Assembly (NCBI GenBank): GCA_965205865.1
Contig: CBDBHR010000030.1
Location: 384,001 to 448,000 of the forward strand
Direction: 5' to 3'
Origin: a bacterium
GTDB lineage: Bacteria > SAR324 > NAC60-12
DNA: 64,000 bases
The notes under the pieces are model-generated. The model searched no databases. It worked only from the letters and a program-made list of their open reading frames with translations, and had not been told where the DNA came from. This document shows positions 4,282 through 47,584 of this stretch, piece after piece; within the stretch, counting starts at the first letter, position 1; every line of letters begins with the position of its first letter. The position numbers and the translations under genes are program-made.

Positions 4282-4795
4282 GGGGTCAGGCTTGCGTATT
4301 GGTATTTAATTTGTGAAATGCCACTCAGACAAAGGATTGAGACTTGGTTCCTTTCTGAAACCTTCTTTGCTGAACAGACAACGCATTGCCTTTCAAACCC
4401 AGATGAGAGTCAATCCTCAGATGCGTGAAAACTCCTGCACTATAGACAATTTCTCAATACCAATATGCGGTCACCGTAAAGAACTGACTTATAGTGGTTT
4501 CCAGCCACCTTTCGTCATTCCTCCGGTACAGATCCGGACGTGCACTGCTAACGCATCCGGCTCCTGCTTCGAGTCAGACGCTCAAACGTTGCCGTTTGGC
4601 GCACAAGGTCAGCGCCTGAAACTATGATTTCGGAGCTCAATACCGAGCCTATGTTCTCCCCTGTCAACGCTTAGCGCCTATCCTTGCGAATAACCACTCA
4701 TGACTCGGGGACTCGGCGGGTCGTTACTGCCTTACCGAGTAAGAGACTTTCACTCTCTATTTCTTGCCAGCTTTCCTGGCGCAGGGCCTGACCCC
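4282..4795. mobile_element. Non-autonomous TIR element A (GGGGTCAGGCY family) carrying a mini group II intron in its right TIR
   Basis: Left TIR ggggtcaggcttgcgtattggtatt. Right TIR read on the minus strand is ggggtcaggcc|cgcatattggtatt once 4470-4784 is removed. Confidence 0.85.
4470..4784 (-). ncRNA. ORF-less, internally deleted group II intron copy (5' ~183 nt plus DV/DVI)
   Basis: Near-identical to 41358-41540 and 39584-39704; the 5' end is CUGCG rather than GUGCG; 3' end ...GGUGAC. Confidence 0.9.
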
Positions 4796-4939
4796 TTCTG
4801 GCCAACCTGCCGCGTTAATCTGTATTTTAGGCATTATTATGTGTCTGATTTTATATTTTATGGGCGTATAATGTGATTATATACACATTTAATAGATATA
4901 CTATTGACACGTCTCCTCCTTCATGGGAGAATATCTACT

Positions 4940-5262
4940 ATGAAAAGAGATATTTATCAGAAATTACTCAAGTGGAAATCTTCGCGTAGAAGGAAGCCCC
5001 TTCTTTTGCAGGGTGCTCGGCAGACAGGGAAGACCTATATTCTAAAGGCATTCGGAGAGAGCGAATATGAGCATCTCATATACTGCAACTTCGAAGAGGA
5101 TACTGGTCTTGACGAGTTTTTCAGGCGTGATCTCAATCCGGAAAGAATCCTCAGAGATCTCTCGATATACTACGACCATAAAATAAAGCCGGAAACCGAT
5201 CTCTTGGTGTTTGATGAGTTACAGACCTCAAATCGCGCGCTGAACGCGCTGAAATATTTTGA
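4940..5262 (+). pseudogene. AAA_14-type ATPase, N-terminal fragment
   Basis: MKRDIYQKLLKWK...GARQTGKT...FDELQ, then fused to unrelated sequence. Confidence 0.8.
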
Positions 5263-5264
5263 AG

Positions 5265-5745
5265 ATGAGCCCTTGGCGGGGGCAATTGATGTACAGTCCA
5301 GCGTGATATCGGGCATTGTGCCGGAAGCCGCGTCGACCCCCAGCTTGGTTAGAAAATCGGTGACAGGGATGATAGTGAGCTTCATTGAAAAACCGTGGCC
5401 CTCTTTATTAAATTCTTCGACCATCGCTTCGCTCCAATCTGAATTGTTGTAGCTAATCCACATCTCCAACACCTTCTTTTGAGCCAGCCAGTTCGAAATG
5501 ACTTTAAATCAGCAAGCGAGTATTTTTACAATTTTTTGTGCGCTTACCAATTGAAAGGGGAGTGGAGTCTGGCTAGGAGGCCTCTTTTTCGTTTCCCCGT
5601 CGCCAAGTCCACTTTCCCCCCAAGGAATCCGGAAATGCTGACGATCAAGACTGCGATGAGCACATTGAGCGCCGTCGCCTCGCGCTAGCGACTATTCATA
5701 CCTTACCCTCGGGTCCAAATAGGGGTAAATCAGAGAAACAAAAAG
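5265..5745 (-). pseudogene. Patchwork of ABC-transporter fragments: sugar SBP-like (~5265-5490), DppC-like (~5597-5685), DppB C-terminus (~5692-5745)
   Basis: Translations FLTKLGVDAASGTMPDI; GATALNVLIAVLIVSISGFLGGKVDLA; LIYPYLDPRVRYE* (same C-terminus as 9910..10872). Confidence 0.6.
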
Positions 5746-5987
5746 CCAACGCCCCACTACAAGGTTATTTACAAAGTGAGGCCCTGCAACGGTTGGAAAA
5801 TCTGAAAGCCTATGTGATTGTCTTTGTGGGAAGCGAGGCAAAAGCAGTGGAAGCCATGGAATTGTGAGAACAACCCCTTTAGTCCGCTTACACGTTGATC
5901 TGTGAAAGCCTATTTTCAAAACCACCATGCGCAATCCCCCTCATCCTGGTGAAATAATTAAGGAATTATGCCATATTTTTGTAGCAA

Positions 5988-6596
5988 TCATTCAGATGGG
6001 CCACTCATTTTATATGAGCCTTTTGGCGGAAGAAGCCCAACCTCTCTTGCAAAAACATCTAGCCGGTTAGCAGTTCCTGTTCCCAAATGTAGTTTTACCA
6101 ATGGACGGAGGTCATCATATTTAAGCTCTTCAACCATCAAAAGTGACTTAGCATCTTGATCATCTTTGGTTTCCCCCGAAACTAATTTCATAGTGATTAG
6201 GTAGGGCAGGCTCACAACGGGTAGGATTTCACCAAAAATTTCTACGTCTCGCCTTGCATATTCAATAGCTTCTCTAAAAAGAATATCCAATCCATCTAAT
6301 CTACGATCAATAAAGTCTACAATCAAATCAGATTCTCTTACAGCCACTCCTCCAATAGGTAATGGGTATGTTTTTAATCCTTTATGTTTAAGGGCTTCTT
6401 CAATTTTAGCTGTGTCACTCGTTAAGATGGCTAAATCAACATCTTTAGTAAATTGTTGGCGATCTGTTGGAAGGAAAACCCAGCTTGCTACTCTACCAAT
6501 CAATGCATAATTTTGAATTCCGGTTTCCCGAAGAAAATTAAGAGCGGCTTTAAGAGATGGGTTAGGATCAAAAGTAGGGATCTGATGAATTACCAT
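5988..6596 (-). CDS. Nucleotidyltransferase-fold protein
   Basis: YALIGRVA...TKDVDL motif and C-terminal MKL...KDDQDA; AT-rich. Confidence 0.7.
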   Translation of the reverse strand: MVIHQIPTFDPNPSLKAALNFLRETGIQNYALIGRVASWVFLPTDRQQFTKDVDLAILTSDTAKIEEALKHKGLKTYPLPIGGVAVRESDLIVDFIDRRLDGLDILFREAIEYARRDVEIFGEILPVVSLPYLITMKLVSGETKDDQDAKSLLMVEELKYDDLRPLVKLHLGTGTANRLDVFAREVGLLPPKGSYKMSGPSE

Positions 6597-6806
6597 AATG
6601 TTAGTTCATTTGAATAAAGTGTTTTCCTGAATTGTTGTGTCGTCCCTGCGGGACTTTGAAGGAGACTGTATTTTGTTCCCAGTGATGAATCGCTGGGCTA
6701 CTTCCTTTTGTCCTTCCAGGACTTTTTCTTACATACGAATCTCAAACTTATATTTACCAGAAGCATAACAGAGTAAGTAGTTGACCCTTTATTTTTTAAC
6801 ATGTCA

Positions 6807-8502
6807 CCTAAATCCTGCAATTGAATATTTTGATTGAGTTTCCCCCCACTCTTTGAGAGGTTTTTTTAAAAAAAAGGATTTGAGAGTTGAATTTCCATCA
6901 GTCCTTGCTCATAAAGGTTTTTCCGCCCTCCATTAGATCGTCATATTTTGTGATGATCTGATACCCGCTTTCGCGGGCACAAGATTCAAGACGTACTTCT
7001 CCCTGGATTTGGGAATCTACATCTCAGCAAAATGTATCCACTGGAGTGAAACAAAGGATCCAGGTCTCTCCAACAGCGACCCATGCATCCCATTGAGCAT
7101 TGTAAAGTGTTCTTTCCGGAACTCTCAGTTTTTGTTGACGAGCGCCACTCGTCCATTTTCCTGCCATTCGGACAAGATAGGTGCGCATGGTGGCCGGTTC
7201 CCAACGGCGCAGTATTGCGTTACCACTACAAAGGGCCATCCAGCGCAGCGTGTTGTAAGCGAGTATCGCGCATTGGAACAAGGCACTGTTGGCCCAAAAA
7301 TCGTCGGTTTTAATCTGAGCCAGCGCAGTTTGATTTTTTGCTTCCTCAATCCATGTCTCAGCGACCGCCCTTTGGCCATACTCTTTGTGAGCCTGCCAGG
7401 GAGTGAGCGCGTCAGTGAGAACATAACAAAAATAATCGTACTCCTTCATCTCAAAGAGGGTGGCCATCCCTTTGAGTTCCTCCTCTTTCTCCCTGCGTAC
7501 GGCCATGAATTTTCTTGACCTCCTCCAAGTTTCACATTGGTGGGAAAACTCACACCCTTCCCAAGCGGGCTGCCCCTTCACTTTTTGCCATTTTTGGGTT
7601 TCCAACAACGAGACAAGCCCCTTGAGTTTGACCTTGATCAGATAGCCATGGCCTCGTTCTTCGAGGAAATCCAGCAAATCCCCCACAAAAAAACCACTGT
7701 CTCCACGAAACAGAGTGCGAGTCCGATTTGGAAGGTGAGCGAGAAGTTGCCGCATGAATTCAACGACTCCATTGCTGGTATAGGCACTCCCATCACGAAG
7801 CCAACCCTGAAGAATCTCCTTTGTCTCTGCGCAAAATGCCAGCAGAGGATGATACGAAGCTGCACCGCGTTTGTGGGGATTATATCCGACAGACACTCCT
7901 TGCTGCTTGCCGTAGGCCGTTTTCACAGTGGAGTCCACGTCAATCACAAGACAGTGTAACACCCCAACGATGCTTGTCCCACTTCGAAGCGCCTTACGCC
8001 AGATACCGGCTCGAATCCGATGGTTCAAGCTCTCCATCTCATTGATGTTTTTCTGTGTGAAAGTACGCAGTATCCGGCCGAATGTGGTTTCATCCGGAAT
8101 CCTCAGCCAACCGGCCACACGACTCAAAACACGGTCGTTCCAAACTGTCACAATCGAACGAATCGAACGGGCGCCACCAACAATGCCGACCACCGACAAA
8201 ATGACCATGTCCACCGCGTCATAAAGACCCGTGGCGCCACGCCGATGATCTACGGTCTGCTCTGTCTTTGAAACAATCCCTTCTTTGTGAAAAAATTTGA
8301 CAACCGGAATCAAGCCTGCTTGCGCGGTCAGGTCTCTGCCTCCCTGGCTGATATGGATGTTTTTTGCTGTCGTTCTTGCCGATCTTGCGCTACCTTTGTT
8401 TTTCATGGTAATGGTGATCTCTTAAAATGTTGATTCTGGTGTTAACTATTTGAGTATATTACCATTTCCATGTTTGATTGTCATCTAATTGCAGGATTTA
8501 GG
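6807..8502 (-). mobile_element. IS1380-family element, copy 1 (1696 bp)
   Basis: TIRs CCTAAATCCTGCAATT; 5-bp TSD TGTCA (6802-6806, 8503-8507). Confidence 0.95.
7024..8406 (-). CDS. IS1380-family DDE transposase
   Basis: IDVDST, YHPL, RGDSGF and W-I-E-E-A-K motifs; 460 aa. Confidence 0.95.
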   Translation of the reverse strand: MKNKGSARSARTTAKNIHISQGGRDLTAQAGLIPVVKFFHKEGIVSKTEQTVDHRRGATGLYDAVDMVILSVVGIVGGARSIRSIVTVWNDRVLSRVAGWLRIPDETTFGRILRTFTQKNINEMESLNHRIRAGIWRKALRSGTSIVGVLHCLVIDVDSTVKTAYGKQQGVSVGYNPHKRGAASYHPLLAFCAETKEILQGWLRDGSAYTSNGVVEFMRQLLAHLPNRTRTLFRGDSGFFVGDLLDFLEERGHGYLIKVKLKGLVSLLETQKWQKVKGQPAWEGCEFSHQCETWRRSRKFMAVRREKEEELKGMATLFEMKEYDYFCYVLTDALTPWQAHKEYGQRAVAETWIEEAKNQTALAQIKTDDFWANSALFQCAILAYNTLRWMALCSGNAILRRWEPATMRTYLVRMAGKWTSGARQQKLRVPERTLYNAQWDAWVAVGETWILCFTPVDTFC

Positions 8503-8625
8503 TGTCATTCTGAGCTTACCAAGAATCTCCAGGTCCACAGAGATCCTTCGCAGGCTCAGGATGACCGTTCTGATAGGTTCTCTCGAAAGACTTAAAATGT
8601 TAAAAAACTTTTGACCTGGTACTTA

Positions 8626-8841
8626 AACCGAGTTCGAGATAAGAATCTAATAAATTCAATATGTTATGGAATCTTCATATCTTAGAGAAACCTTGTCATT
8701 CCTGCGAAAGCAGGAATCCGGAGGTATGCAGCCAGACTGAAATCCGGATCCCCGCTCCCCGCTTTCGCGGGGACAAGTTTCGCGAGGATGACATATAAAC
8801 TAGGATACTCATATTATTGAAGATTTATGTCGAACTCAGGT
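8626..8841. mobile_element. MITE with ACCTGAGTTCGA-type TIR, containing a GTCAT-tagged REP pair
   Basis: TIR (a)accgagttcgagataa...ttatgtcgaactcaggt; 6-bp TSD TACTTA; inverted sister copy at 21622-21831. Confidence 0.8.
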
Positions 8842-9090
8842 TACTTAATAACTCGGAAACGACGGGTAATGCTTTTTAGAGGTTGAAAACAGAGGCCGGA
8901 AAGAGTATTTTCTAGTTGCTCAAAACTTGACCACCTCTTTCACTTAAAAGCCTCATGATTTTATATTTAACAAGGGTTCCCAGATTTGTAAACCTAATTT
9001 TAAAAACAATGCCCGGTATTTTTCGTCATCGGCATGCCCTGATGTTTACTTGGCTGCTAGTCCTTCAGATCGTTTGTTCTGAAATGAGTG

Positions 9091-9905
9091 GGGGTCAGGC
9101 TTCGTTAAATCGTTATTGAAATTTTTCATATTTTTGATAGACTTTTCTTTTTAGTTTTTTAACTCTATCTGAAAGGAGTCCTATGTCTCGTAAACCCCGA
9201 ATTCATCTTGCCGGCGGTATGTATCATGTGATGCTTCGTGGAAATGGAGGACAGGCTATCTTTTTTCGGAAAGAGATCGCCAAGTGATCTATATTTTTTG
9301 CAACTCATCCGCTACATTCATCAAAATCCTTGGCGTGCGGGTTTGGTTGAAGATTTGAAAGACTATCCCGATAGCAGTCATTTGTGTTATTTGGAGCATG
9401 AACAAAAGGATTGGCTGTATCTTGATGCGGTTTACCAACGATTTGGAAAACGTCGGTCAGTGGTGATCAGAAAATACACTGCCTTCATCGATGAAAAGGA
9501 AGAGGAGGCGTCTGTTTTCAGGAATGGAGAAGCTCAACCCGACATTATTGGTGATGAGAGTTTTGCCGAAACGGTGAGACCGCGTGTCGAAGAAAACATT
9601 CAAATAGTGCTGAGATGGGAAGATATTCTGAAAAGTGTTGGCGCGATCTTGCAGGTGAATCCTGAGGTGCTCAAAACCCCCGGCAGGCAAAGGAAAAATG
9701 CGCGAGCGCGAGCATTTATCGCGCTCTTTGTTGAAGAATTTTCAGTGACTTCCTTCCAGGAGATCGCCCGTTTTTTTAAGAGAGATATTGTCACCATCAG
9801 CCAAGGGGTGAGTCGACTGAGAAACAATCTCCCTGTCGATGCCAACCTCCGCAGGCAATATGACGCGATTCGCAATCAATTAACGAAATAACGAAGCCTG
9901 ACCCC
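9091..9905 (+). mobile_element. TIR element B with an internally deleted Y1/HUH transposase
   Basis: TIRs ggggtcaggcttcgtta(aa/tt)tcgtta. ATG 9183 gives MSRKPRIHLAGGMYHVMLRGNGG, then jumps to YFLQLIRYIHQNP, so the HUH motif is missing; C-terminal HTH; stop codon lies inside the TIR. Confidence 0.85.
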
Positions 9906-9909
9906 GAAA

Positions 9910-10872
9910 TTATCCATAACGGACCCTGGGGTCTAAGTACGGATAGATCAGGTCGATCATTAGATTGCCCCCTACAACCATGGTGGCGAAAACCAGGTTT
10001 ACTCCGGAGACCACCGGGTAGTCTCTGTTTTGGAGTGCATCAAGCAAGAGCCGACCTAGCCCCGGCAGGTTAAAGATGTTCTCCATGATAACGGCGCCGC
10101 CTACCAGCAAAGGCAACTGCAGGCCAATCAGGGTCACCACCGGGATGAGGGCATTTTTGATGGTGTGCCGGATAATCACGACCCGCTCCCGGAGCCCCTT
10201 GGACCAGGCGGTCCGGATATAGTCCTGCCGGAGCACCTCCAGCATCATGGTGCGCATCATCCGCATGGTGGCGGCTGCCGAGGACGTCCCCAGAATCAGG
10301 CTGGGAATGAAGAACCCCCAGAGATTCCCCAGCGGGTCTTCTGTGAAAGAAACCAGCTCCATCGGTGGCGCCCAGCCCCACCAGATTGCCGGGTATATCA
10401 TGACCATAATTCCCAGCCAGAAGTTAGGCGTTGCCAGGCCGATGATGGCGATGAAGCGCCCCAGGTAGTCGGCGGCCGTATCCTGGCGAATCGCCGAGTA
10501 GATGCCGACCGGCAGGGCTATCATGAGCCCGATTACGATTGCCATGACACCGAGCTCCAGGGTAACCGGCAGTCTATCTAATATCCTCTCCTCTACCGCC
10601 CAACTGGCCATCAGTGATTCGCCAAGGGTGCCGTGCCGGAGAATACCTCCTAGCCAGCGTCCATACTGCACGTAGACAGGCACGTCTAATCCCAGCTTAT
10701 GCTCAAGAGCCTCACGGTCAATCTCCGCCCAGCCAGAGTACGTTTCCATGTTCATCATCATTACGTCTATTGTATCGCCGGGGATGAAGCGGACCGAGAG
10801 GAAGACCAGGATGCTCAATATAAACAAGGTGGGGATTATCAGCAATAACCGCCTGATGATGTAGGCTCTCAT
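9910..10872 (-). CDS. ABC peptide/nickel transporter permease (DppB/OppB-like)
   Basis: YIIRRLL start; EAA-like loop DYIRTAWSKGL; LDPRVRY end. Confidence 0.95.
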   Translation of the reverse strand: MRAYIIRRLLLIIPTLFILSILVFLSVRFIPGDTIDVMMMNMETYSGWAEIDREALEHKLGLDVPVYVQYGRWLGGILRHGTLGESLMASWAVEERILDRLPVTLELGVMAIVIGLMIALPVGIYSAIRQDTAADYLGRFIAIIGLATPNFWLGIMVMIYPAIWWGWAPPMELVSFTEDPLGNLWGFFIPSLILGTSSAAATMRMMRTMMLEVLRQDYIRTAWSKGLRERVVIIRHTIKNALIPVVTLIGLQLPLLVGGAVIMENIFNLPGLGRLLLDALQNRDYPVVSGVNLVFATMVVGGNLMIDLIYPYLDPRVRYG

Positions 10873-10910
10873 GTGATACGCCTCATTGCAATTTCCCCCG
10901 TTATTTCTTT

Positions 10911-11225
10911 CGTCATTGCCACCCCTCTTTTGTCATTGCGAGCCCTGATTCTATTGTCCCGACTCGGAAGTTCGTTGCATAAATCGCATCATGTTCCGGA
11001 GTGGGCCTGTGGTTCGACAGGCTCACCACGAACGGGAAAATCCAACACCCCGTGAACGGGAAAATCCAATACTCCGTTCGCCCTGAGCCCGTGGAAGGGC
11101 CGCCGAAGGCTTTCTCTTTGTTAAGCGCACTTCTGAGACAATAGACTATCGGGGCTTCGTCAAGTTCCTTCACTGCCTCTTCGCTGCACTCAGAGCTTCG
11201 GTTCAGGACAAGCCTCGCAATGACA
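10911..11225. repeat. Nested palindromic REP-like repeats between the permease and SBP genes
   Basis: tgtcattgcgag...ctcgcaatgaca pair enclosing ttcgacaggctcaccacgaacgg...ccgttcgccctgagcccgtggaaggg. Confidence 0.6.
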
Positions 11226-11258
11226 GTAAGAAAGGCCCCCTCTCATTATTCAATGAGT

Positions 11259-11299
11259 AAGGGAGCTGGGAAGCTTGCAAGCTTCCCAGCTCCCTTTTT
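11259..11299. terminator. Perfect 18-bp stem hairpin downstream of the SBP gene
   Basis: aagggagctgggaagctt-gc-aagcttcccagctccctt; the T-tract is on the + strand, so it may be a stabilising hairpin for the minus-strand transcript. Confidence 0.6.
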
Positions 11300-11329
11300 C
11301 CATGAGGTCAGCCACAAGGGGTGAAACCC

Positions 11330-13096
11330 CTAATGACCCATTTCTTTCTTCAGATCCTGATCGATCCAGAGGCGGCCGAAGATTTGATTCTTAGAAAGGT
11401 ATCCCAACCCGAATTCACCGTTGTAACCTTTGACCCACGGCCAGATCGCGTCAAATACTGGATTCATAAGACTCCAGACAGCCCAGTGCCTCTCTACCGC
11501 GTACATATCCATCGCTTTAACCAGCCTCTGCTGCTCCTCGATGGTGGTCGCCGCCCCGGCGGCTTCAAACATGGCTTCGTAATCCGGGTCGTTCACTGCG
11601 GAGGTGTTCCATGAAACGGCGGACGTATAGCGGCCCGGAGGATTGAGAGGATCAGCCGCACTCCCATAGGCCATTTCGTGAGAGATCATTTCGAAATCAC
11701 CGGCTCTTCTTATAGTGACAAATGGAGCTATTGGCTGTACCTGAACCTCGACATCAACGCCAATCTTATTCCAGTATGAAGCGAGTAATTCTGTAAAGTT
11801 CGCATCGTACCGGTCGAGGTGGATATAGACGGTCTTGAACCGAATGCCGTCGGCGCCGCGAGGTAATCCCGCGGCATCAAGCAACGCCTCTGCCCCTGCC
11901 GGGTCATAGTCATAGACTTTCTTGAGCTCTTCGGGCCACTCTTCAAATGGGATGAAATACCCCATCATACCATCCCCTACCTGCCCGTGAGGCGTGGTAT
12001 CTCCATAACCCTTAAAGAAGGCATCTTGAATTGTCTCAAGGTCGAGTGCCATCTGCATTGCCTTGCGCACCCTGATATCGGTAAAGGGCGGCTTATTCAC
12101 GTTAAGACCAGTAGAATTGGTCGACGCAAGGGCAATCGTCCATATCACGAGTTCGGGGTTGGTCTTCTGGAGGCTCTCTACCTGGTCGACAGTCCTTATA
12201 TTACGGAGTAAATCAAGCTTACCCGTGCGCAGTGCCGCCAGAGATGTTGCCACTTCTGGCATAATCGGGGCCCTTATCCCGTCAACATAGGGCAGTCGGT
12301 TCTGCGGGTATTTTTCGTCGTAGCCCCAGTAGTCGGGATTCTTGGTCCACGTAATAGAGCTTCCCTCGACCCAGTCAGTCAGCATAAAGGGTCCGGTACC
12401 GACCAGGTTCCTCCAATCACTAGCGTCGCCGTATTGCTCGATTACCTCGGGGGGGTATATCCAAGCAAGCCAGTCGTCGAGGATACCAGCCAGTGCCTGC
12501 AGGTGTGGCTTCTTCAGCTTAAAAACAACCGTCCATTTATCGGTGGCTTCTATCGATTCGAATGACATAGTTTTGAGAAGCTGAGATTTGGGGCTGAGTT
12601 CGGTGAAGCCGCTGCCCAGACCCATCATGCGGTGAAAGTTATATTCGACATCCTTGGCAGTCAGCTCCCGACCGTTCATCGGTGCCTTATCGTGCCAGTG
12701 AACGCCCTGACGGATGTTGAGGATGATCGTTAGTGGGTCGGGCTGTTCCCAGCTTTCAGCCAGCTGCCCCGTCATGGCAAATACAGGCGCGTTGAGACCT
12801 ACGAAGCCAAATTCGTCCCTATCTATTCCCCAGTTCGGGAAGCCTATCTTCTCTAAAACACCATCGACGAATCCTGCCCCCCAGGCACCAGCGGCCACGA
12901 CGTCAGCATTCTTAAACTCTTCCTTCCGGGCGAAGGTCAATGTCCCGCCATATCGTGGGGCCTCCACCATCTCCCCGGTAGTGGGATCGGTCACGTACTT
13001 GGCTGCCCAGACCTGGCCAGCCATGAAGACGCTTGCTCCCATGATGAGAGCCAGCAGGGTTGCGCTCAATTTTGAGCTGCTTTTTAGATTAAACAT
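11330..13096 (-). CDS. ABC transporter substrate-binding protein, family 5
   Basis: LAESWE, VGTGPF, NPDYW and DIRVRKAM motifs; signal peptide after ATG 13096 with RBS GGAGA; the ORF can extend to 13303. Confidence 0.95.
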   Translation of the reverse strand: MFNLKSSSKLSATLLALIMGASVFMAGQVWAAKYVTDPTTGEMVEAPRYGGTLTFARKEEFKNADVVAAGAWGAGFVDGVLEKIGFPNWGIDRDEFGFVGLNAPVFAMTGQLAESWEQPDPLTIILNIRQGVHWHDKAPMNGRELTAKDVEYNFHRMMGLGSGFTELSPKSQLLKTMSFESIEATDKWTVVFKLKKPHLQALAGILDDWLAWIYPPEVIEQYGDASDWRNLVGTGPFMLTDWVEGSSITWTKNPDYWGYDEKYPQNRLPYVDGIRAPIMPEVATSLAALRTGKLDLLRNIRTVDQVESLQKTNPELVIWTIALASTNSTGLNVNKPPFTDIRVRKAMQMALDLETIQDAFFKGYGDTTPHGQVGDGMMGYFIPFEEWPEELKKVYDYDPAGAEALLDAAGLPRGADGIRFKTVYIHLDRYDANFTELLASYWNKIGVDVEVQVQPIAPFVTIRRAGDFEMISHEMAYGSAADPLNPPGRYTSAVSWNTSAVNDPDYEAMFEAAGAATTIEEQQRLVKAMDMYAVERHWAVWSLMNPVFDAIWPWVKGYNGEFGLGYLSKNQIFGRLWIDQDLKKEMGH

Positions 13097-13527
13097 ACGA
13101 GATTCTCCGTTTGGATGTTTAAAAATATTAAGGATTGATTTGAAACCTGCCTTCATTCCCAAAAGCACGTTCTCGACGAGTCCTCTACTTTTTTGACGGT
13201 TCAAGGTGCTCCTTTCTGCTTTTTGATTAAAAACAAGATTGCGGGTTGCTTTAAAACCTGCTTTCGTCCCCGAAAGCACGTTCTCGACGATTGCTCTACA
13301 CATTGGGTCTCCTTCATTTTCAAGTGATCAAAAAACCGATTCATTGGCTCCAGGATTGGGCAATGAACCATAAACCGACGCACTCAGGCGCCGATGATTT
13401 TCCAAATTCCCCATTGCCGTTCCGTTCCCGGAACGAGTCATCTTAAGGATCTCTTCCTGATGTCGAGATAATATAAGGGGGTAGAACTTGGGATTGGGGA
13501 CTTGTGACTTGTTGCTTAGAACTTATT

Positions 13528-13581: not shown

Positions 13582-13587
13582 CTTTTA

Positions 13588-16740: not shown

Positions 16741-16746
16741 GATGAG

Positions 16747-33133: not shown

Positions 33134-33137
33134 CCTT

Positions 33138-34049: not shown

Positions 34050-34051
34050 AC

Positions 34052-34850
34052 ATGTCATCGCTCGCCAATCTGTCGCTTCTGGCCTATAGCGCCCGAAGAG
34101 GTGCGCCAGAAGAGAGCTACCATGAACATGTAGCCAATGTGCGCCGCCTTTCGGCCAAGTTTACCCGCGAAGCGGTAGCATACTCGTCGGCATGCTGGCG
34201 GGAATCATTTCAAACGGTGGTGGAGTTGGTAGCCACTTACCACGACCTCGGTAAGTTGGACGACATCTTCCAAGACATTCTGCGTCGTAACCGCCCCAAT
34301 AAAGAAGGATTCAATCACGTCGAAGCGGGCACCGCTCATCTCCTGAAAGGAAAGCTGGGTGGACTTCTCTTTCCGTACCGCCTTTCGTGAACGTTGCAGC
34401 TTGACCAGCCTGCTCCAGATCGCCGGACGGATCAGTCGTCACGACGAATACACCGAAGCCGAGGCGTGAGATTTTCGGCACGACGAATCTGACTCCCTAA
34501 ACCTACATCCTCACTTCAAGAGCTCGCAAAAGGTGCTTACTGATATGCTTGCCGAGTACGGCGAGTCTATCAGCCCGCAACACTGCACCGAAGCATTACG
34601 TCGAGAAGTTAATGCGGGCTTCGGAAAAACCGAAAGCATGGCTCGGCAAATCATTGCCGCTGAGAACAAGGAGGACTATCCCCAAGTTGCTCAACACTGC
34701 CGGATTATCACAGCGGAGACACACACGGCGCTTGTCTGTCAGGAATTGATTGACCGGTTTCAAACAAAAGATCCCAAACAATCTCCGATAGTCGTCCGCT
34801 TGAGTGTTGTTCCTCTGAAAATCGGGAAAAATAACTGTAAACCGGGGTAA
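34052..34850 (+). pseudogene. cas3: cas3 remnant: HD domain joined to helicase motifs V/VI; helicase core deleted
   Basis: EH...YHDLGK...NH, then frameshifted VDFSFRTAFRERCSLTSLLQIAGRISRH and stop codons. Confidence 0.85.
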
Positions 34851-37467: not shown

Positions 37468-37491
37468 GAGTATCATTCCGCCGGTGACACT

Positions 37492-38487: not shown

Positions 38488-38686
38488 ATTCGTGCTATTT
38501 GTGCTTATGAGAAGATAAATCCGACTATCTCTCCGGTCGACTGACGAGGAATTGGGGTCAGGCCTGCGACTTTGGGAGTTTAAGTTTAAATTTCCGTTTG
38601 ATCTCTTCGACACGGTTTTGCAGATCAGGAGACTTTCTGATTTTTTGTCTCAGCTGATGGATTCTGGCACTGATCGTCGAATCATC

Positions 38687-39517
38687 TCAATTGAGCTTGT
38701 TTGCCAGCTCTCTGATTGTCGCGGACTTCAAGTTGAAAGCGATCATTCCAACCACGGCCAGCGCTTCACTGAACTTGCGGGACTGCCCCGCATTTTTTAA
38801 TTGTTCCTCCTCAATCCGATAAACCTCCGAAACCCGCTGAATAATCTTTTCTAAAGAAGGAGGCGCGTGAGGCTTCGTTTTCAGTTGCTCGAAAACAGAA
38901 CTCAGGAAATGATCTTCTCCGATTACTTCGGGATGAGTTGACCCTTTTTTAAAATTCACTTCGGAGGCGATTCCCCTTCTTTCATGAATATAAGTCGCAT
39001 AGAATTTCCTCGCCTCAGAACGATCTGAGGAAAAGAGAGACAATCCCAAGTCACAATGCAACCAATCCGGCTGCTTTCCCCCCAAATAAGCGGCATGGCT
39101 ACTCCAGGGAAATTCCGCCAATTCCTTGACGATTCCCGCTCGGGTCGGATTGAGGTGGATGTAACGTATTAAGGCAAGCAAATAGCGGTCTTGATCCACT
39201 AACAGAGCTTTGTAACGCCCTTGGAATAAGTGTCCGACTCGTTTTTGCCGTTTGTTGATCCAACGGGTGTAACGAAATGATACATTTTGCATAATCGGCG
39301 AAAGTGGCTGACTGCCGGTTTGGATGGCTAGATGCGCATGATTGTTCATCAAACAAAAGGCATGAATGCGATGATCAAAACGCGCATGACCCTCTGCAAG
39401 CAACTTGTAAAAATGATGATAATCCGTATGCTCGAAAAATAGGGCTTGTCCGCCATTGCCACGGAGCATGACATGATAAAGGGCGCCGGGGAAGTAAAGA
39501 CGAGGTTTGCGGGACAT
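38687..39517 (-). CDS. Y1 (HUH) tyrosine transposase with a DnaA-C-like HTH, shortened by a CGA>TGA change
   Basis: YHVMLRGN, LMNNHAHL (HUH), YIHLNP (catalytic Tyr), WSS; the copy at 47123 reads through to KREI*. Confidence 0.92.
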   Translation of the reverse strand: MSRKPRLYFPGALYHVMLRGNGGQALFFEHTDYHHFYKLLAEGHARFDHRIHAFCLMNNHAHLAIQTGSQPLSPIMQNVSFRYTRWINKRQKRVGHLFQGRYKALLVDQDRYLLALIRYIHLNPTRAGIVKELAEFPWSSHAAYLGGKQPDWLHCDLGLSLFSSDRSEARKFYATYIHERRGIASEVNFKKGSTHPEVIGEDHFLSSVFEQLKTKPHAPPSLEKIIQRVSEVYRIEEEQLKNAGQSRKFSEALAVVGMIAFNLKSATIRELANKLN

Positions 39518-39583
39518 TGGCAAAATCGGCTGAAGGGAGAAACTTAAAATTAAAAATCATAACTCCTGTTTCCCAAACTCGCA

Positions 39584-41540
39584 GTCACCGTAAAGAACTG
39601 ACTTATAGTGGTTTCCAGCCACCTTTCGTCATTCCTCCGGTACAGATCCGGACGTGCGCTGCTAACGCATCCGGCTCCTGCTTCGAGTCAGACGCTCAAA
39701 CGTTGATTCGGATACGGGTGGGTTGTCCTTACAGAAGGAATGTGTAGTTTGACCAGTACTTTGAAGCGTTCCCAGTTCATCCTCTTTGCTTTGTGACTCC
39801 TCCGTCTTAGTGATTTGAACCACGTCCGATGGATTTCCGTGCGAAAAGCATTCAAGGAACTCCGGTTGCCGGGGACTCCATAGTAGTTGTACAGACCGTT
39901 TAAAACAGACCTGAGCCATTTTCCTTGTTCATGCGCATTTTCATGACGTTTGCGTTTCGCTTCAAGTTTGATCTCTTTGAGCTTCTTTCGCAACCTTTTG
40001 GAAATGGTGAGACGGGTGAGCTTGAATTTTCCATCCTTTATCCGAGTGTCACAGACATGAGTGAATCCTGAAAAGTCGAAACTTTCCGGTTTTCCCAGAC
40101 CTTGTTTTTCCCGGTTATCGGCGGCAAATCGCCCGAACTCGATGAGGCGTGTTTTCTCTTCATGTAAAGTCAGTCCAAATTGAGAGAGGCGTTCTCTTAG
40201 TTGGCGATTAAATTTCTGGCCATCTTCAGAATATTGAAAACCCACGACGAAATCATCCGCATAGCGAATGATGTAAACTTCCCCCCGAGCTTCCCGCCTT
40301 CTCCATTGATTGACCCATAGATCTAAAACATAGTGCAGGTAGATATTTGAATAGATTGGAGAAACTACCGAACCTTGTGGTGTTCCGACCACCGTTTCAG
40401 ACCACTTCCCCTCTTCGATGACTCCGGCGCGCAACGTTTTCTCTACTAAACGCAGAATCCTTTTGTCGGAGATTCGATGCTCGATAAATTTCAGCATCCA
40501 ATCATGCTGAATTGTGTCGAAAAATCCTTGAATATCCGCATCTAAGATGTAGCTCACTTTCCGTTGGGTAATGGCCACATACAAAGCGTCTAAGGCTTGA
40601 TGTTGGCTTCGTCCGGGTCGGAACCCGTAACTAAACCCAAGGAAATCCTCCTCATAGATCGATTCCAACGTCCAAACAAGGGCTTGTTGTACGATCTTGT
40701 CTTCAAGTGCGGCTATTCCGATTGGCCTTTGACGGCCATCCGGTTTAGGAACCCACACTCGCAGAGAAGGGTGAGGACGATAACGTTCTTGGTGGATCCT
40801 CCCGTGCAGATCGTTAATCCGCTCCAGGAGATTTATGCCATACTCATTCCAGGTCTCCTCGTCCACTCCCGCCGCTGAGTTGCGATTGAGATCAAAGTAA
40901 GCTCTCCGCAGTAAGTCAGGGTTGATGTGATGAAAGAGATTGTTGAATTGAAGATGGGGGTTCCTCTTCGCCCTTTGGCGCACCCTGCTTAAACCGCTCT
41001 CTGATTTTACCGGCCTCTGAGTTCCGAACACAGGAGGGCAAGCAGAATTCCTCTCAGCCAAGTCCCTTTGCTCCACAGGCTCCGTTGATTTCCTTTGCAT
41101 TGTTACTCTCTACAAATGATCTCATTGTTCGCCGCTTCATCGCTACTACGAACTTGTCCGACTTCCTGAAGACGTAGATATCGGGGTTATTTATTAATTT
41201 TCCCGATCCGACTACCAATAGAATGTTGACAGTCGTCTTCAGGATCTCCCAGGTTCCGATCAAGAAACTTCCACACATGCACCGGGTCTTTGACTCCGCC
41301 AGGCTCAGCCGAGACTCACGCTAACGCCTTCGGTTGATATTGCCTTCCCCACCAGACCACAAGGTCAGCGCCTGAAACTATGATTTCGGAGCTCAATACC
41401 GAGCCTATGTTCTCCCCTGTCAACGCTTAGCGCCTATCCTTGCGAATAACCACTCATGACTCGGGGACTCGGCGGGTCGTTACTGCCTTACCGAGTAAGA
41501 GACTTTCACTCTCTATTTCTTGCCAGCTTTCCTGGCGCAC
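39584..41540 (-). mobile_element. Full-length group II intron (class E-like by inference)
   Basis: 5' GTGCGCCAGG; DV GAGCCGGATGCG...CGCACGTCCGGATC; 3' ...GGTGAC; RT ORF in DIV. Confidence 0.95.
39688..41100 (-). CDS. ltrA: Group II intron reverse transcriptase/maturase without an endonuclease domain
   Basis: AAGVD, RPIGI, GFRPGR, GTPQG and YADD motifs; X domain; 470 aa. Confidence 0.95.
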   Translation of the reverse strand: MQRKSTEPVEQRDLAERNSACPPVFGTQRPVKSESGLSRVRQRAKRNPHLQFNNLFHHINPDLLRRAYFDLNRNSAAGVDEETWNEYGINLLERINDLHGRIHQERYRPHPSLRVWVPKPDGRQRPIGIAALEDKIVQQALVWTLESIYEEDFLGFSYGFRPGRSQHQALDALYVAITQRKVSYILDADIQGFFDTIQHDWMLKFIEHRISDKRILRLVEKTLRAGVIEEGKWSETVVGTPQGSVVSPIYSNIYLHYVLDLWVNQWRRREARGEVYIIRYADDFVVGFQYSEDGQKFNRQLRERLSQFGLTLHEEKTRLIEFGRFAADNREKQGLGKPESFDFSGFTHVCDTRIKDGKFKLTRLTISKRLRKKLKEIKLEAKRKRHENAHEQGKWLRSVLNGLYNYYGVPGNRSSLNAFRTEIHRTWFKSLRRRSHKAKRMNWERFKVLVKLHIPSVRTTHPYPNQRLSV

Positions 41541-41654
41541 AGCCTGACCCCGTACCGTACTCTGGGAGAGGACTTGACATCCTCCGGGGGATACGATAGA
41601 GATGGAGTGCTTTCTTTAGAAGAATTTTTAAAACAGTCTGATAAGGAGGACCGG

Positions 41655-42689: not shown

Positions 42690-43104
42690 TGTATTGCCTG
42701 TTTAATACATTTGTATTATTGGTCATTTGGTAGACATTTCTTCGGCAGTTTTAGTCCAAACATATGGTTTTGGGTTGGATTGTGCGCCTCGATGTAACTA
42801 TGGATGGCTTCGGTCAACTCGAGCACGCTTTTGAAGGCGCCTCGCCGTCGCCACTCCAACGGAATTGCCGCTGGTTCCAATCGTTTTGGCAATCTCTTGA
42901 TTCTTAAGGATCAGCAGCCAACTGCGCGCACGAAGAGCGTCTCGCATCGCTCCGGTCTGACGGCGTGCGGTTTTGCTCAATTCATCCCGTTCTTCCCGGG
43001 TCAGTTTTATACTTGGCGCTTTCCTAATGCTGTCTCCATAATGCAAATAAAAAGAACAGCTCGGTATAGCAAACCAAGGAATTATTTATACATTAATGAC
43101 ACAC
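42689..43104 (-). mobile_element. Internally deleted IS630-family remnant
   Basis: CTAG at both ends with gtgt...acac termini; KLTREERDEL...ALRAR HTH fragment. Confidence 0.6.
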
Positions 43105-43257
43105 TAGCATGCAGGAACTGACTGAAATGGATGTTTGACTTTGGTCTCTCACTGCATCGCCGAACATGTTGAGACTGTAGACGACAAGCGTGAAGTCAGG
43201 GGTGGGATGGCAGCTTCTGCCACCGCCGTCCCACAGTTGGTAGGCAATCAGCCCAAT

Positions 43258-45084
43258 CTAGAATCCCATTTCCTTCTTCAGCGCCTGGTCAATCCAGAGG
43301 CGGGCGAACAGGGAACGACGGTCCGGGCCTCCCAGATCGGATTCACCGTGATACCCCTTGAGCCATGGCTGGATCGCGTTAAAGCTGGGAGCTTTATGAC
43401 CCCATACATACGTGATCCCTAACTTCTCTAGCTGGTACATATCTGCCTCTCTAGCCAGCTTCATCTGCTCCTCAATGGTGGTAGCGGCTGCGGCGGCGTC
43501 AACCATAGCGTCATAAGCCGGGTCCCTGAATCCGGGACGTTGTGGAAGAAACTGTAGCCCCCACATAACGGAATAATCTGGCGCGGCCACCATATTCATC
43601 ATACCTTCATAACTATGTTCCTTGACACTAGAGATATGGCGAGGGACATCCACTGTCTTAATCGTCACATGAACACCGATGTCCGCCCAGTAGGCGGCCA
43701 CTATTTCTGCATAGTCTAAAGGGAAATACTCCGAGAGGTTTTCCAAGACCGTCTTGAATCGAATGCCGTCGGCGCCGCGCGGATACCCTGCCTCATCAAG
43801 CAACGCTTCTGCCCCTTTCGGGTCATAGGTATAGCGTTCCTTGATCGCTTCGGGCCACTGTTCAAAGGGGATGTGATACTCAACAAGACCATCCCCCAGC
43901 ATCCCCTGAGGTTTCCACTTTGCATAACCCTTAAAGTAGGTATTGTTAATGGTCTCCAGGTCCAGGGCCTTCTGCATGGCTATGCGCACCCGGATGTCGT
44001 CAAAGGGCGGCTTGAGCATGTCCAGAGCAAAAGTCTGATTCGCTCGAGAGAATTGCGAGAACAGCTCGATTTCGGGGTTAGTCCGCCGGAGGCTTTCTAC
44101 CTGATCGATAGACTTTATGTCAGCGGAGGCGTTGTGACCGATGTAATCCAGCTTACCTGAGCGAAGTGCCGCCAGAATGGTCGCGTCATCTTTCATAATC
44201 AGGCCCCTTAACTGGTCCGCATAGGGCAGGCGGTTCTGCGTGTATTTTTCGTCGGTGCCCCAGTAGTCAGGGTTCTTGTCATAGGTCATAGAACTGCCAT
44301 CGACCCAGTCGGTCATCATCCAGGGCCCGGTGCCGACCAGATTTCTCCAATCCCTAATGTCGCCGTGTTGCTGGATGACCTCAGGCGGTAATACCCAGGG
44401 ACAGCGGCCGATGAGGATCTCCCTCAGCGCATCGAGGTTTACCGCCTTCAGCTTGATCACAACCGTCCATTTGTCGGTGGCCGTTATCGATTCGAAGGGG
44501 AGCTTGACGAGTACCGCACAAATGCCTGCAGGGGTAGGTTCGCTGAAGCCGCTGCCCAGACCTAATATCCGGTGGAAGGAATACTCGACATCACTGGCAG
44601 TTAGCTCCCGACCTGACATGGGTGCCTTATTGTGCCAGTGAACGCCCTGGCGAATCTTGAACACGTACGTGAGAGGATCCGGGGTCTCCCAGCTTTCCGC
44701 CAGCTGCCCTTTTATGGCAAACAGAGGGAATAATTGATTTTGGAAGCGAAATAAATTCCTGTCCGTTGCCCAGTTCCCGATGCCCAGCTTCTCTGCAACG
44801 CCACTGAGGGGGTCGCAGGTAGGCCCGAGGTAGATGGCAGTACTCGGAGGCACGCACTTCTGGGCATAGGTGATTGTCCCGCCGTACTCAGGTACGCTCA
44901 CCATTTTACCCGTGGTCGGATCTTTGACCATCTTTTTCTCAGCAGCCACGACCGAACTGACTCCGAGGGCGGCCACCATCAGGGTGAGGGTGAGCAACAA
45001 GGATTGCAATTTTGCAGCAGACCAGGCGCCTGCCGGGTTCAGCCCCACGAGAGGGGTAAAAAGTTGCTTGATATACATGTCCAT
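43258..45084 (-). CDS. ABC transporter substrate-binding protein, family 5 (paralogue of 11330..13096)
   Basis: DPTTG..V..P.YGGT, LAESWE, VGTGPW and NPDYW motifs; signal peptide. Confidence 0.95.
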   Translation of the reverse strand: MDMYIKQLFTPLVGLNPAGAWSAAKLQSLLLTLTLMVAALGVSSVVAAEKKMVKDPTTGKMVSVPEYGGTITYAQKCVPPSTAIYLGPTCDPLSGVAEKLGIGNWATDRNLFRFQNQLFPLFAIKGQLAESWETPDPLTYVFKIRQGVHWHNKAPMSGRELTASDVEYSFHRILGLGSGFSEPTPAGICAVLVKLPFESITATDKWTVVIKLKAVNLDALREILIGRCPWVLPPEVIQQHGDIRDWRNLVGTGPWMMTDWVDGSSMTYDKNPDYWGTDEKYTQNRLPYADQLRGLIMKDDATILAALRSGKLDYIGHNASADIKSIDQVESLRRTNPEIELFSQFSRANQTFALDMLKPPFDDIRVRIAMQKALDLETINNTYFKGYAKWKPQGMLGDGLVEYHIPFEQWPEAIKERYTYDPKGAEALLDEAGYPRGADGIRFKTVLENLSEYFPLDYAEIVAAYWADIGVHVTIKTVDVPRHISSVKEHSYEGMMNMVAAPDYSVMWGLQFLPQRPGFRDPAYDAMVDAAAAATTIEEQMKLAREADMYQLEKLGITYVWGHKAPSFNAIQPWLKGYHGESDLGGPDRRSLFARLWIDQALKKEMGF

Positions 45085-45649
45085 GAGAACTCCTTATACA
45101 TGATTTTGACAATACTTCACCCAGCCATTGAGCCCATCGAAAGAACGGGTGCTCGAACGCCCGGATGAGGAAAAAAAGATTCCCGGGGAGGATCAATCGT
45201 TTTCAATTCCTCTCACGATATTGTTCAATCGATCGGGAACCCTCTCATTCACTAAAACAACTTAGCGAAGGCATGATCCTAGTACAATAACAACAACGCA
45301 ATGTCTAGCCCCAAATGCAAAAAAATGCGGGATTCGCAAAAAAAAATAAAAAATCAATAAATCTGCTCAAATCCGGGGACAGTCAGAAGCCGTTCAGTTC
45401 AATAACGTTGAAAAAAGATTCCCGAGGAGGATCAATCGTTTTCACATCCTCCCAGGGTATTGTTCAATCGATCGAGTGGGAACCCTCCCACAGCTAATTT
45501 TGAATCAAACGAGCGGAAATCCTCTCCTTCCCTAAAACAACAAGGCATGATTTCAGCACTACTACGCGGCGCAAAGCCTATAGCAAGTTTGGATCAGGAG
45601 AATTGCGCAACAATGGAGGTCAGCTATAAAAAGATATATTGCGGTCAAT

Positions 45650-45835
45650 CTTCGGCATGAGCCAAAAAGCGAATGTTCGCTCCACAGTCCAGCGTTTTTT
45701 CCAACGGCGATAATGATCGTAAACGCTTTGCCAGGGAGGTAAATCATGGGCAAGCATGCTCCACTGACAACCCGTTTTCAGGACATACAAAATCGCATTG
45801 ACGATGCTATGTTTGCTATGAATACTTTTGGCCAC
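45650..45835 (-). pseudogene. IS5-family transposase remnant
   Basis: NAILYVLKTGCQW...DLPPW fused to KRWTVERTFA. Confidence 0.8.
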
Positions 45836-45929
45836 GCAGGGGGCGGAACGTTTAAAAAAAGGGGAGTTTCAGTAACAAGGAGGAGCATGTGAAGCCTGTC
45901 CCGGACTTGATCCGGGGGATGCAAAGCCT

Positions 45930-46215
45930 GAGTGAGCAACTCGAGCATGGATTTCCCCTGTTTTCTGGTAGTGGAAATGGGCTCGGATACAAAATGCCTG
46001 CGTTCCTTCAGCAGTTCGGAAGCCGCCTGAGATTTTCTGTTTCAATTTGACCATGCGGATATCTCTCTCGGCTTGGTTGTTGTCAAAAGGAACTTGAAAG
46101 TCATGCATGAATAACAAGCTTTCCTTTTCAAAGAGGATCAAACGATCGAGTAAATTTTTTGCTTTCGTCTGTTTGGGGCGTTCTCGTTTCTTTTTTTGAG
46201 GACTTGCAGGATAGA
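45930..46215 (-). pseudogene. IS66-family transposase C-terminal fragment
   Basis: [26 protein letters not shown]. Confidence 0.85.
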
Positions 46216-46231
46216 GCTTGAGAATGAGATT

Positions 46232-46297
46232 GGGGTCAGGCCTTTGTTGTTGTGTTATTCAAGTATTTAAATAAGCCAATAACAAAAGCCTGACCCC
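46232..46297. mobile_element. 66-bp hairpin TIR element D
   Basis: ggggtcaggc-ctttgttgttg...caataacaaaa-gcctgacccc. Confidence 0.85.
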
Positions 46298-46906
46298 ATT
46301 TCTCCGTTCAGCGAAACCATCTGGGTCAAGCAGCCCGGCTTGGGCGCGTCGACGGCGTGGCACCAGGACGGCGCGACACATTGGGACAACCCCGAGTTGG
46401 ATCGGGGCACCCACGGTTTCAACTTCATGGCTTAGCTTCACCCCACCAATCCGACGAATGCGTTGTGGGTGATTCCAGGGACACACAAGCGGGGCAAGCT
46501 CGATATCGTCGCACGGATCCAAGCCAATGGAGGTTCAGACCGTCTCCCGGACGCCGTACCGATGCTGGGAAACCCCGGCGATGTGGCGATCTGCAACCGC
46601 CAGGTGTTGCATGGCTCCTTTCCCAACACCTCACCGGGCATGCGGGCGACTTACCAGTTTGGCTTTCACCGCCGGGCTTCCCTCCTGGGCGTGAAGGGAT
46701 GGAGTGCCCAGCTCTACGACGAGACGCGGATCCATGAACGCTCCCGCATCATCGCCCTGGCCATCGATGCCCGTCACCAGCGTTTTCCCCATGAACCGCG
46801 CTACCTCTATCAGCCACTGACCGATGAGCTGGACGCCATCCACTGGAACAGCTTCACGCGCGAGCACCTTTTGAAAAACTACAACCGGAAAGACATGTCG
46901 GTCTGA
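46298..46906 (+). pseudogene. Phytanoyl-CoA dioxygenase (PhyH) family; 5'-truncated at the TIR, internal TAG at ~46433
   Basis: IWVKQPG...AWHQD...LWVIPGTH...HGSFPN...R. Confidence 0.85.
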
Positions 46907-47045
46907 GCATAACCGCTGAGAAGGCTCGGGCAGAAGCTTGTCTCCTGAGACGAAAGGGGGATGGGCCTCACTTCGGCCAATGGATTAATAGGGGACAGGT
47001 CAAGCAAGCCTACAATAAGCACCGAACAATAAACCAGAAATCATC

Positions 47046-47090
47046 ATGACAGAAGATAATGTTGACTTTTTAGTCATTGGTTCAGGGATT
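47046..47090 (+). pseudogene. First 15 codons of an FAD-dependent oxidoreductase (NadB-like), cut by the TIR
   Basis: MTEDNVDFLVIGSGI| ends inside a Rossmann GxGxxG motif at the GGGG. Confidence 0.55.
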
Positions 47091-47584
47091 GGGGTCAGGC
47101 CTGCGACTTTGGGAGTTTAAGTTTAAATTTCCCGTTTGATCTCTTCGACACGGTTTTGCAGATCAGGAGACTTTCTGATTTTTTGTCTCAGCTGATGGAT
47201 TCTGGCACTGATCGTCGAATCATCTCGATTGAGCTTGTTTGCCAGCTCTCTGATTGTCGCGGACTTCAAGTTGAAAGCGATCATTCCAACCACGGCCAGC
47301 GCTTCACTGAACTTGCGGGACTGCCCCGCATTTTTTAATTGTTCCTCCTCAATCCGATAAACCTCCGAAACCCGCTGAATAATCTTTTCTAAAGAAGGAG
47401 GCGCGTGAGGCTTCGTTTTCAGTTGCTCGAAAACAGAACTCAGGAAATGATCTTCTCCGATTACTTCGGGATGAGTTGACCCTTTTTTAAAATTCACTTC
47501 GGAGGCGATTCCCCTTCTTTCATGAATATAAGTCGCATAGAATTTCCTCGCCTCAGAACGATCTGAGGAAAAGAGAGACAATCC
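47091..47584 (-). mobile_element. TIR element E: 3' half of the element C transposase with one TIR
   Basis: Near-identical to 38554-39046; C-terminus intact. Confidence 0.92.

Follow-up and report, generated by a model that had tools for sequence, protein, structure and literature searches.

Inverted GGGGTCAGGCY repeats of a SAR324 symbiont genome as probable TIRtron ends and as the apparent homing site of a group II intron

TIRtrons, a class of mobile element published in 2013, carry a gene for a Y1 transposase, TIRYT, between terminal inverted repeats (TIRs) that share the motif GGGGWSAS, as far as the available text of that description goes (Di Nocera, De Gregorio & Rocco, PMC3733652). Subclass 2.1.2 of the related TnpA_REP enzymes, according to the accessible part of a later classification, carries a Bac_DnaA_C-like domain (Quentin et al. 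2018, bioRxiv 10.1101/279083). Here, we are concerned with elements of this kind in a window of 64,000 nucleotides from the metagenome-assembled genome of a SAR324 bacterium (G000:C30:384001-448000) and, in particular, with the 11-nt sequence GGGGTCAGGCY, which a first-pass annotation of the window had linked to a possible system that captures and shuffles DNA. The source assembly, G000, comprises 4.74 Mb in 30 contigs, with a completeness of 92% and a contamination of 3.7%. It was compared with G001, a same-genus genome of a sister species, the comparison covering 2.8 Mb or 66% of G001, to which all absences stated for that genome refer. Contigs assembled from four public runs, X9, X10 and X14 among them (three studies), served as a strain-level check; the window is represented, with 54-71% of its words, in at least six public runs.

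Two other groups of single-tyrosine enzymes offer themselves for comparison. The IS200/IS605 elements (IS608, ISDra2) encode a single-tyrosine HUH transposase and generate no target-site duplication; their subterminal hairpins stand in direct orientation, and insertion occurs on the 3' side of a fixed tetra- or pentanucleotide and leaves the flanks intact. TnpA_REP (RAYT), on the other side, cleaves and recombines short dispersed palindromic repeats as single-stranded DNA in vitro, according to the accessible portions of two studies (Ton-Hoang et al. 2012, PMC3333891; Corneloup et al. 2021, PMC8266576).

In our reading, which we consider reasonably probable, the genome harbors several families of TIRtrons together with their gene-less miniatures, the core of the TIRs has been invaded by a group II intron, and the mosaic of unrelated genes around the elements stems from secondary events and not from the collection of DNA. 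The core itself is clearly overrepresented. Namely, all nine ends listed by the first-pass annotation were recovered as exact GGGGTCAGGCY sites, at 4282(+), 4795(-), 9091(+), 9905(-), 38554(+), 41551(-), 46232(+), 46297(-) and 47091(+), and a tenth site with one mismatch lies at 30393; with up to one mismatch allowed, these 10 sites compare with 1.93 expected, and none of 100 shuffles has as many as ten. The genome-wide mapping which that annotation had proposed yields 138 exact sites in G000 (69 forward, 69 reverse) against 7 (3 + 4) for the reversed control pattern, and 36 against 3 in G001, while in the other 29 relatives searched the count is at control level.

That GGGGTCAGGCY is the conserved core of TIRtron TIRs is well supported by sequence comparison, the TIRtron here being an element of 1.0-1.2 kb whose single gene, TIRYT, codes for a single-tyrosine HUH transposase that resembles RAYTs and has a DnaA-like helix-turn-helix (HTH) at its C-terminus. 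In particular, the open reading frame (ORF) at 38687-39523(-) matches Pfam Y1_Tnp (PF01797) with 49.7 bits (cut-off 23), and in an alignment with E. coli TnpA_REP (4ER8), weak as a match (E 0.12), the HAH (HUH) and Y-x-x-x-N-P motifs are in register. The C-terminal domain is recognized by Bac_DnaA_C with 32.4 bits in the F-family copy at 9238-9891 (cut-off 31.5) and with 28.9 bits, below that cut-off, in the E-family copy at 47123-47581. The TIRYT genes are flanked by inverted cores, at 38554(+)/41551(-) and 9091(+)/9905(-), which bear the GGGGWSAS motif and not REP hairpins. A Y1 transposase with GGGGWSAS repeats had been anticipated in the first-pass annotation, and the assignment to the TIRYT type is borne out by the Pfam, NCBIfam and 4ER8 comparisons; the term 'STIR', which it had used alongside, is absent from the available text of PMC3733652.

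The likeness to TIRtrons as published, at least in the parts of the two sources at hand (PMC3733652; bioRxiv 10.1101/279083), thus extends to a RAYT-like Y1 gene between TIRs with GGGGWSAS (here GGGGTCAG), to the Bac_DnaA_C-like C-terminal HTH, and to the dispersal of TIRs as single, paired and clustered repeats. What these descriptions do not contain, as far as they are accessible, is the co-residence of six families with one core in one genome, with its 138 exact cores, or hairpin-forming miniatures, variable A-rich tips, strikingly discontinuous flanks and a dedicated intron parasite. The REP/BIME systems with their RAYTs, and REPINs, also combine a related HUH/Y1 enzyme with dispersed repeats, and the miniatures seen here resemble their hairpin-forming REP doublets. 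However, there is no GTAG/CGTC-tagged REP hairpin here, single TIR arms do not fold alone (z 0.4 to 1.3), and the NCBIfam model for REP-associated tyrosine transposases (REP_Tyr_transpos, NF047646) scores 68 bits, below its cut-off of 80; moreover, the TIRYT genes are multi-copy and mobile-looking, whereas RAYTs are, in the accessible accounts, single-copy and domesticated. With IS200/IS605 the elements share the single-tyrosine HUH transposase and the absence of target-site duplications, but their ends are inverted, their flanks are seldom continuous, and for at least 15 of 22 ends compared the A-rich tips do not stem from the target. No biochemistry or bench study of any TIRYT was found in the literature searched.

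The window holds five elements. The most complete is a TIRtron of the E family, whose body spans 38554-39583(-), with its left TIR at 38554, an intact TIRYT gene (278 aa, 38687-39523(-)) and the inner arm of its right TIR ending at 39583. There the element is interrupted by a full-length group II intron of 1,957 nt (39584-41540(-)), beyond which lies the right core (41541-41551(-)), separated from its arm and acting as the 5' exon of the intron. A second E-family TIRtron is represented by its left 494 bp only (47091-47584(-)), that is, by the TIR and the 3' part of TIRYT (47123-47581); it is 99.6% identical to 38554-39046, and an unrelated dispersed repeat (47583-47777, >100 matches) breaks it off at 47584. 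The F-family TIRtron at 9091-9905(+) has an internally deleted, inactive TIRYT, of which about 30 N-terminal codons (9180-9269) and the C-terminal part with the DnaA-like HTH (9286-9891) remain; the HUH region is missing, as tblastn matches cover query residues 2-31 and 112-274 only. At 4282-4795 there is a gene-less B-family element of 514 bp (left core 4282-4292, right core 4785-4795), which holds a decayed, ORF-less copy of the intron on the minus strand, with intron nt 1-183 at 4784-4602 and the 3' part at 4591-4469 (Rfam RF02005, 92.9 bits at 4557-4750(-)). Finally, 46232-46297 is a gene-less, D-like palindromic miniature of 66 nt, which with its tips forms a DNA hairpin of -20.8 kcal/mol (z -7.5). 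It had been claimed that the nine ends share an 11-nt core and carry element-specific arms. The core is indeed common to all, but the claim of specific arms does not hold for two of them: what follows the cores at 4795 and 41551 is no arm and is the 5' end of the group II intron.

Across G000, a census that allowed one core mismatch and sorted the ends by the sequence following the core gave 198 ends (D 69, A 45, intron 33, B 20, F 13, C 11, E 7), arranged in 57 pairs and 84 unpaired ends. Two of the one-mismatch ends (C29 111283 and C30 519912) were rejected as chance sequences, so the set is slightly inflated. The outward flanks of 184 of the 198 ends are unique, and the copies are therefore dispersed. 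Each of the six families, A to F, combines the common core with its own TIRYT lineage and its own arm, in which a heptamer peculiar to the family, patterned as TTGxxxx-TTTGxxx, occurs twice in tandem. The TIRYTs of the families are 34-67% identical to that of the window: the E family has one intact copy, the one in the window; the C family five intact copies (67% identical to E); the D family one copy (50%); the A family one copy in two aligned segments (66%); and the F and B families decayed copies. Gene-less miniatures range from 52 to 540 bp, and those of 52-91 bp are near-perfect palindromes. The 367-bp A elements retain only the first ~40 TIRYT codons, which identifies them as internal-deletion miniatures. 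Two further observations concern the vicinity of the ends. About 14 of them (e.g. C4:25432, C10:101524 and C23:126009) are preceded by a tandem duplicate of the 3-4-nt tip and the first 7-8 core bases, and several others by a partial TIR of 11-27 nt. Besides, a 220-nt miniature inverted-repeat transposable element (MITE) with inverted ends of its own (window 8624-8843; 51 full-length copies in G000, many in G001) has copies elsewhere in the genome that lie within some of the GGGGTCAGGCY arms or immediately beside them.

The cores at 41551 and 4795 are followed by one and the same sequence, which starts with GTGCG and is the 5' end of the group II intron. The full-length copy at 39584-41540(-), which starts GTGCG and ends AC, matches Rfam RF02005 with 168.2 bits (cut-off 49) and, for domains V-VI, RF00029 with 31 bits, under the cut-off of 40; its reverse transcriptase (RT)/maturase ORF (39688-41100(-)) reaches 342.7 bits with TIGR04416 (cut-off 300). 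G000 contains about five full-length copies and many that are truncated or, at ~700 nt, lack the ORF. Among 41 intron 5' ends, 23 stand behind an exact core, 31 behind a core with at most one mismatch and 37 with at most two, while 31 of 37 3' exons begin with T and the arms of all six families are represented among them. Consequently, insertion takes place behind base 11 of the core and ahead of the arm in every family; with the core as its 5' exon, the intron has access to all six. What is more, contigs of X9, X10 and X14, three of the four runs, join 39583 directly to the core (39583 to 41555), which represents an intron-less allele of the very same TIRtron. The positions of the copies, taken together with these intron-less alleles at one locus, point to an intron that is mobile into a defined homing site. 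In G001, a related intron stands behind variants of the core and is followed by C-type arms. A 5-base tandem duplication directly outside the TIR (41550-41554) is absent from the intron-less alleles of the three runs, and at C26:239009-240179 an intron copy is directly followed by a second intron 5' end, so that two introns lie in tandem or nested there.

Proliferating group II introns with few RT-coding and many ORF-less copies, the latter presumably mobilized in trans, have reportedly been described by Mohr et al. in 2010 from Thermosynechococcus elongatus. The balance of RT-coding and ORF-less copies is similar here; the difference is that nearly all copies occupy one position of another mobile element's inverted repeat. 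No group II intron targeting TIRYT or RAYT repeat ends was found in the literature searched, the nearest published case found being P. putida, where two of nine introns lie near REPs according to the accessible part of the report (PMC1525189). A scan of a contig collection with the 21-base core-plus-intron junction gave 12 loci, all of them chance matches that lie in GC-rich genes and have neither RT nor TIRYT; in that collection, in which near relatives may not be represented, no occurrence of the junction outside the genus came to light.

As to mechanism, we would propose the following. The HUH domain would recognize the common core and the A-rich tip and cut there, the HTH would read the family-specific heptamers, and no target duplication would be made, as with other Y1 enzymes. 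Miniatures would arise by internal deletion and could form long hairpins in single-stranded DNA. The 1,957-nt intron, together with its ~700-nt ORF-less derivatives, would retrohome precisely behind base 11 of the core, in front of the arm. The truncated neighbors, finally, would be due to secondary events at or between the many copies, such as adjacent deletions, recombination between copies, or insertions of other repeats.

The elements reach 2-6 A-rich bases beyond the outer GGGG, with a flank logo of G-A-A-A-N at both ends, and in at least 15 of 22 nested cases, in which the element interrupts a multi-copy sequence, that sequence does not contain these tips, which makes them either a part of the element or an addition. 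A target-derived flanking pentamer, considered on the basis of two junctions with genes of the window (PhyH and membrane protein, see below), is ruled out by the same nested cases. The absence of target-site duplications, stated in the first-pass annotation, was confirmed.

The continuity of the flanks is a different matter. In the test applied, an end counts as evaluable if its 400-nt outward flank has a unique match in G001 that reaches the junction, and as continuing if the next 300 nt of G001 are found within 8 kb in G000. Random positions continue in 922 of 966 evaluable cases, and intergenic-like random positions in 85 of 93. Mobile-element ends do so in 6 of 7 cases for an IS4-like element, in 4 of 9 for the 220-nt MITE and in the single evaluable case of a 1-kb repeat. 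The corresponding figure for exact-core TIR ends is 1 of 11, all 11 belonging to complete pairs; small as these key counts are, the difference from the three other element families pooled (11 of 17) gives a Fisher p of 0.006 and that from the IS4-like element alone a p of 0.0025. In this sense, the claim that TIR ends lie at breakpoints is upheld, breaks in collinearity being much commoner there than at other mobile-element ends. The stronger claim that the flanks never rebuild finds no support, at least two miniatures in G001 sitting between collinear genes. Applied to G001, the test counts 5 of the 9 evaluable TIR-like ends as continuing, two of them only at a distance of 5-8 kb, and the two miniatures stand between genes that are collinear in G000, where the spacer is wholly different. 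Mapping of both flanks identified one shared locus, C23 126009, at which G001 holds a decayed element; some insertions must consequently be old.

The discontinuity of the flanks weighs against our reading. It is far commoner than simple insertion with occasional decay would predict, and this excess is the only finding here that may come as a surprise to a specialist. Apart from the 1 of 11 ends that continues, the joined flanks of all 57 G000 pairs, compared with G000 and with the 2.8 Mb of G001, gave no spanning match (0/57), two self-hits aside. In 15 of 17 nested cases the interrupted multi-copy sequence is not resumed within 8 kb, the other two being a 338-bp tandem duplication and a 46-nt match, and none of the 17 has a reciprocal junction elsewhere in G000, which argues against simple inversion by recombination. 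The search for empty sites, which the first-pass annotation had suggested, turned up no clean one in either G000 or the compared part of G001; the same search with 8 G001 pairs led to one of the two miniature loci with a wholly different spacer in G000, neither of which is a clean empty site. Among the joints listed for the four runs, none skips a whole TIR element, a result that is uninformative on excision, as the contigs break at repeats. The recognition of the core by the intron adds a further difficulty. Namely, the pairing of exon- and intron-binding sites (EBS-IBS) is a candidate: domain I of the intron contains stretches complementary to the core, one of which the Rfam model places in a helix, and the G001 exon change has no compensating counterpart in the candidate EBS stretch. 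The candidate EBS1 stretch is invariant among the G000 copies in the alignment columns examined.

One can argue from the flanks that TIRYT transposition is inherently non-conservative, with ends acting independently or replicatively within the same chromosome and deleting or inverting the DNA between them, which would make the elements drivers of rearrangement and not gene collectors. We regard this as a possible but doubtful explanation. It would account for the discontinuity of complete pairs, so marked beside the IS4-like element, for the young multi-copy sequences, of 98-100% identity, that stop precisely at TIR tips, their remainder being absent, for the ~14 tandem duplicates of tip and first core bases, and for the 5-base duplication beside 41551, which is polymorphic between strains. 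Yet the numbers are small, more than half of the evaluable ends in G001 do continue, two miniatures there stand between collinear genes, the TIR elements may simply predate the IS copies or have a preference for junk-rich regions, reciprocal products did not turn up, and the assembly is 92% complete. Moreover, we know of no such non-conservative chemistry for Y1 enzymes (IS200/IS605), which counts against it. If one were to take it further, each TIR end with its A-rich tip would be joined singly to a new site and the DNA between lost, the six families would constitute a deletion and rearrangement engine in a sponge-symbiont genome, and the intron would use their core as a multi-copy safe-harbor homing site, giving a three-level stack of parasites; this extended picture we offer tentatively, as an unlikely one. 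The more likely cause is secondary, namely deletions and recombination in a part of the genome that is plastic and rich in repeats. The TIRtrons and their miniatures sit where the genome of the symbiont was rearranged, and gene collection is without support.

The genes next to the elements lead to the same question from another side. The membrane-protein gene at 3909-4281(-) lacks its first ~24 codons and abuts the element tip, while an intact 146-aa orthologue is present in G001 (L002), where its upstream neighbor is an aldo/keto reductase gene without an orthologue in G000. The PhyH-family gene at 46298-46906(+) is a decayed C-terminal fragment, with an in-frame TAG at ~46433 and a match to positions 143-212 only of the Pfam PhyH profile; the intact gene of G001 lies at 1762967-1764092. 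The claim that the outer GGGG cuts genes is thus substantiated by comparison with the intact G001 genes for the membrane protein (at about codon 25) and for PhyH, and is unconfirmed for the 27-codon signal-peptide-like ORF at 9009-9090 and the 15-codon NadB-like start at 47047-47090. That other ends abut intact genes is correct: only 4 nt separate the dppB stop from 9905, the CDF gene stops 66 nt short of 38554, and the desaturase starts after 41551. Genome-wide, a link to gene truncation is not supported. Namely, long open frames adjoin TIR ends more rarely than they adjoin random positions, with a median of 57 against 149 codons and an open frame of at least 100 codons at 25.5% of the ends against 63.7% of random positions.

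This depletion is one of the reasons why we consider it very unlikely that, as the first-pass annotation had it, the ends are one-ended strand-transfer sites which capture incoming or ectopic single-stranded DNA into an integron-like cassette array. An HUH enzyme is present, target-site duplications are absent, the flanks bear no relation to each other and the ends are over-represented at synteny breaks, all of which one would expect of such a system. However, no element encloses cargo, the long TIR pairs examined containing only a TIRYT gene, a TIRYT remnant or the intron; there is no uniformly oriented array of cassettes and no integrase-type recombinase; and the segments between the elements have paralogues elsewhere without adjacent TIRs. 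Nor are there naked one-ended cores in any number: 34 of 38 solitary exact-core ends carry at least 30 nt of inward family sequence and are therefore truncated elements, which leaves 4 of 38 with less. Finally, the neighboring fragments are decayed, and with a stop codon in the PhyH fragment nothing suggests selection for captured DNA.

Could the discontinuous flanks be an artefact, contigs having been misjoined across repeats? The assembly, in 30 contigs, 92% complete and with 3.7% contamination, is open to such errors, and the repeats are 97-99% identical. That said, contigs from independent runs and studies bear out the junctions that were checked: both junctions of 46232-46297 are bridged by 517-nt contigs of X9 and X10, and the junction at 41551 is bridged in assemblies of other runs as well. 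A misjoin across a repeat, moreover, would not truncate a gene exactly at the repeat tip, and the missing halves of the membrane-protein and PhyH genes were found nowhere in the G000 assembly. For these reasons, we hold an artefact to be extremely improbable.

Besides the TIR elements, the window is crowded with other repeats, so not every break need come from the former. The IS4-like element with a DDE transposase is present in inverted copies at 7024-8406(-) and 17070-18452(+), out of 29 full-length copies in the genome, and these two bracket a segment of ~8.6 kb with the F-family TIRtron, dppB and an SBP_bac_5 gene, an arrangement that is possibly composite. The dppB-like permease and SBP_bac_5 genes (9910-13303 and 43258-45084) belong to a very large family of paralogues, with dozens of copies of 70-86% DNA identity in G001 alone. 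A dispersed repeat of ~1 kb with hundreds of partial matches occupies 45172-46222 and ends 9 nt before the TIR at 46232, and short dispersed families with more than 100 matches each are found at 47583-47777 and 5601-5678. At 6678-6723, Rfam Acido-Lenti-1 (RF01687) matches with 47 bits (cut-off 37); this hairpin repeat, multi-copy in G001 too, was considered as a GGGGTCAGGCY end and rejected as unrelated. Cas5d-like, large-subunit-sized and Cas7 genes of type I-C-like character lie at 30328-34390.

Taken together, the results give no support for a new gene-capture system. The TIRtron class has been known since 2013 and has been little studied, and the core-homing intron is without published parallel in the literature searched. 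Intact TIRYT genes are present, namely that of the E family in the window and five copies of the C family, and the existence of six families with one core and differing arms predicts a division of labor in which the HUH domain would deal with the core and the HTH domain with the heptamers. The intron represents a clean case of a retroelement specialized on the ends of another mobile element, and it could serve as a marker of TIR activity. As for the symbionts themselves, the pattern of the flanks suggests that the ends are recombinogenic, which, if confirmed, would explain part of the extreme mosaicism of their genomes.

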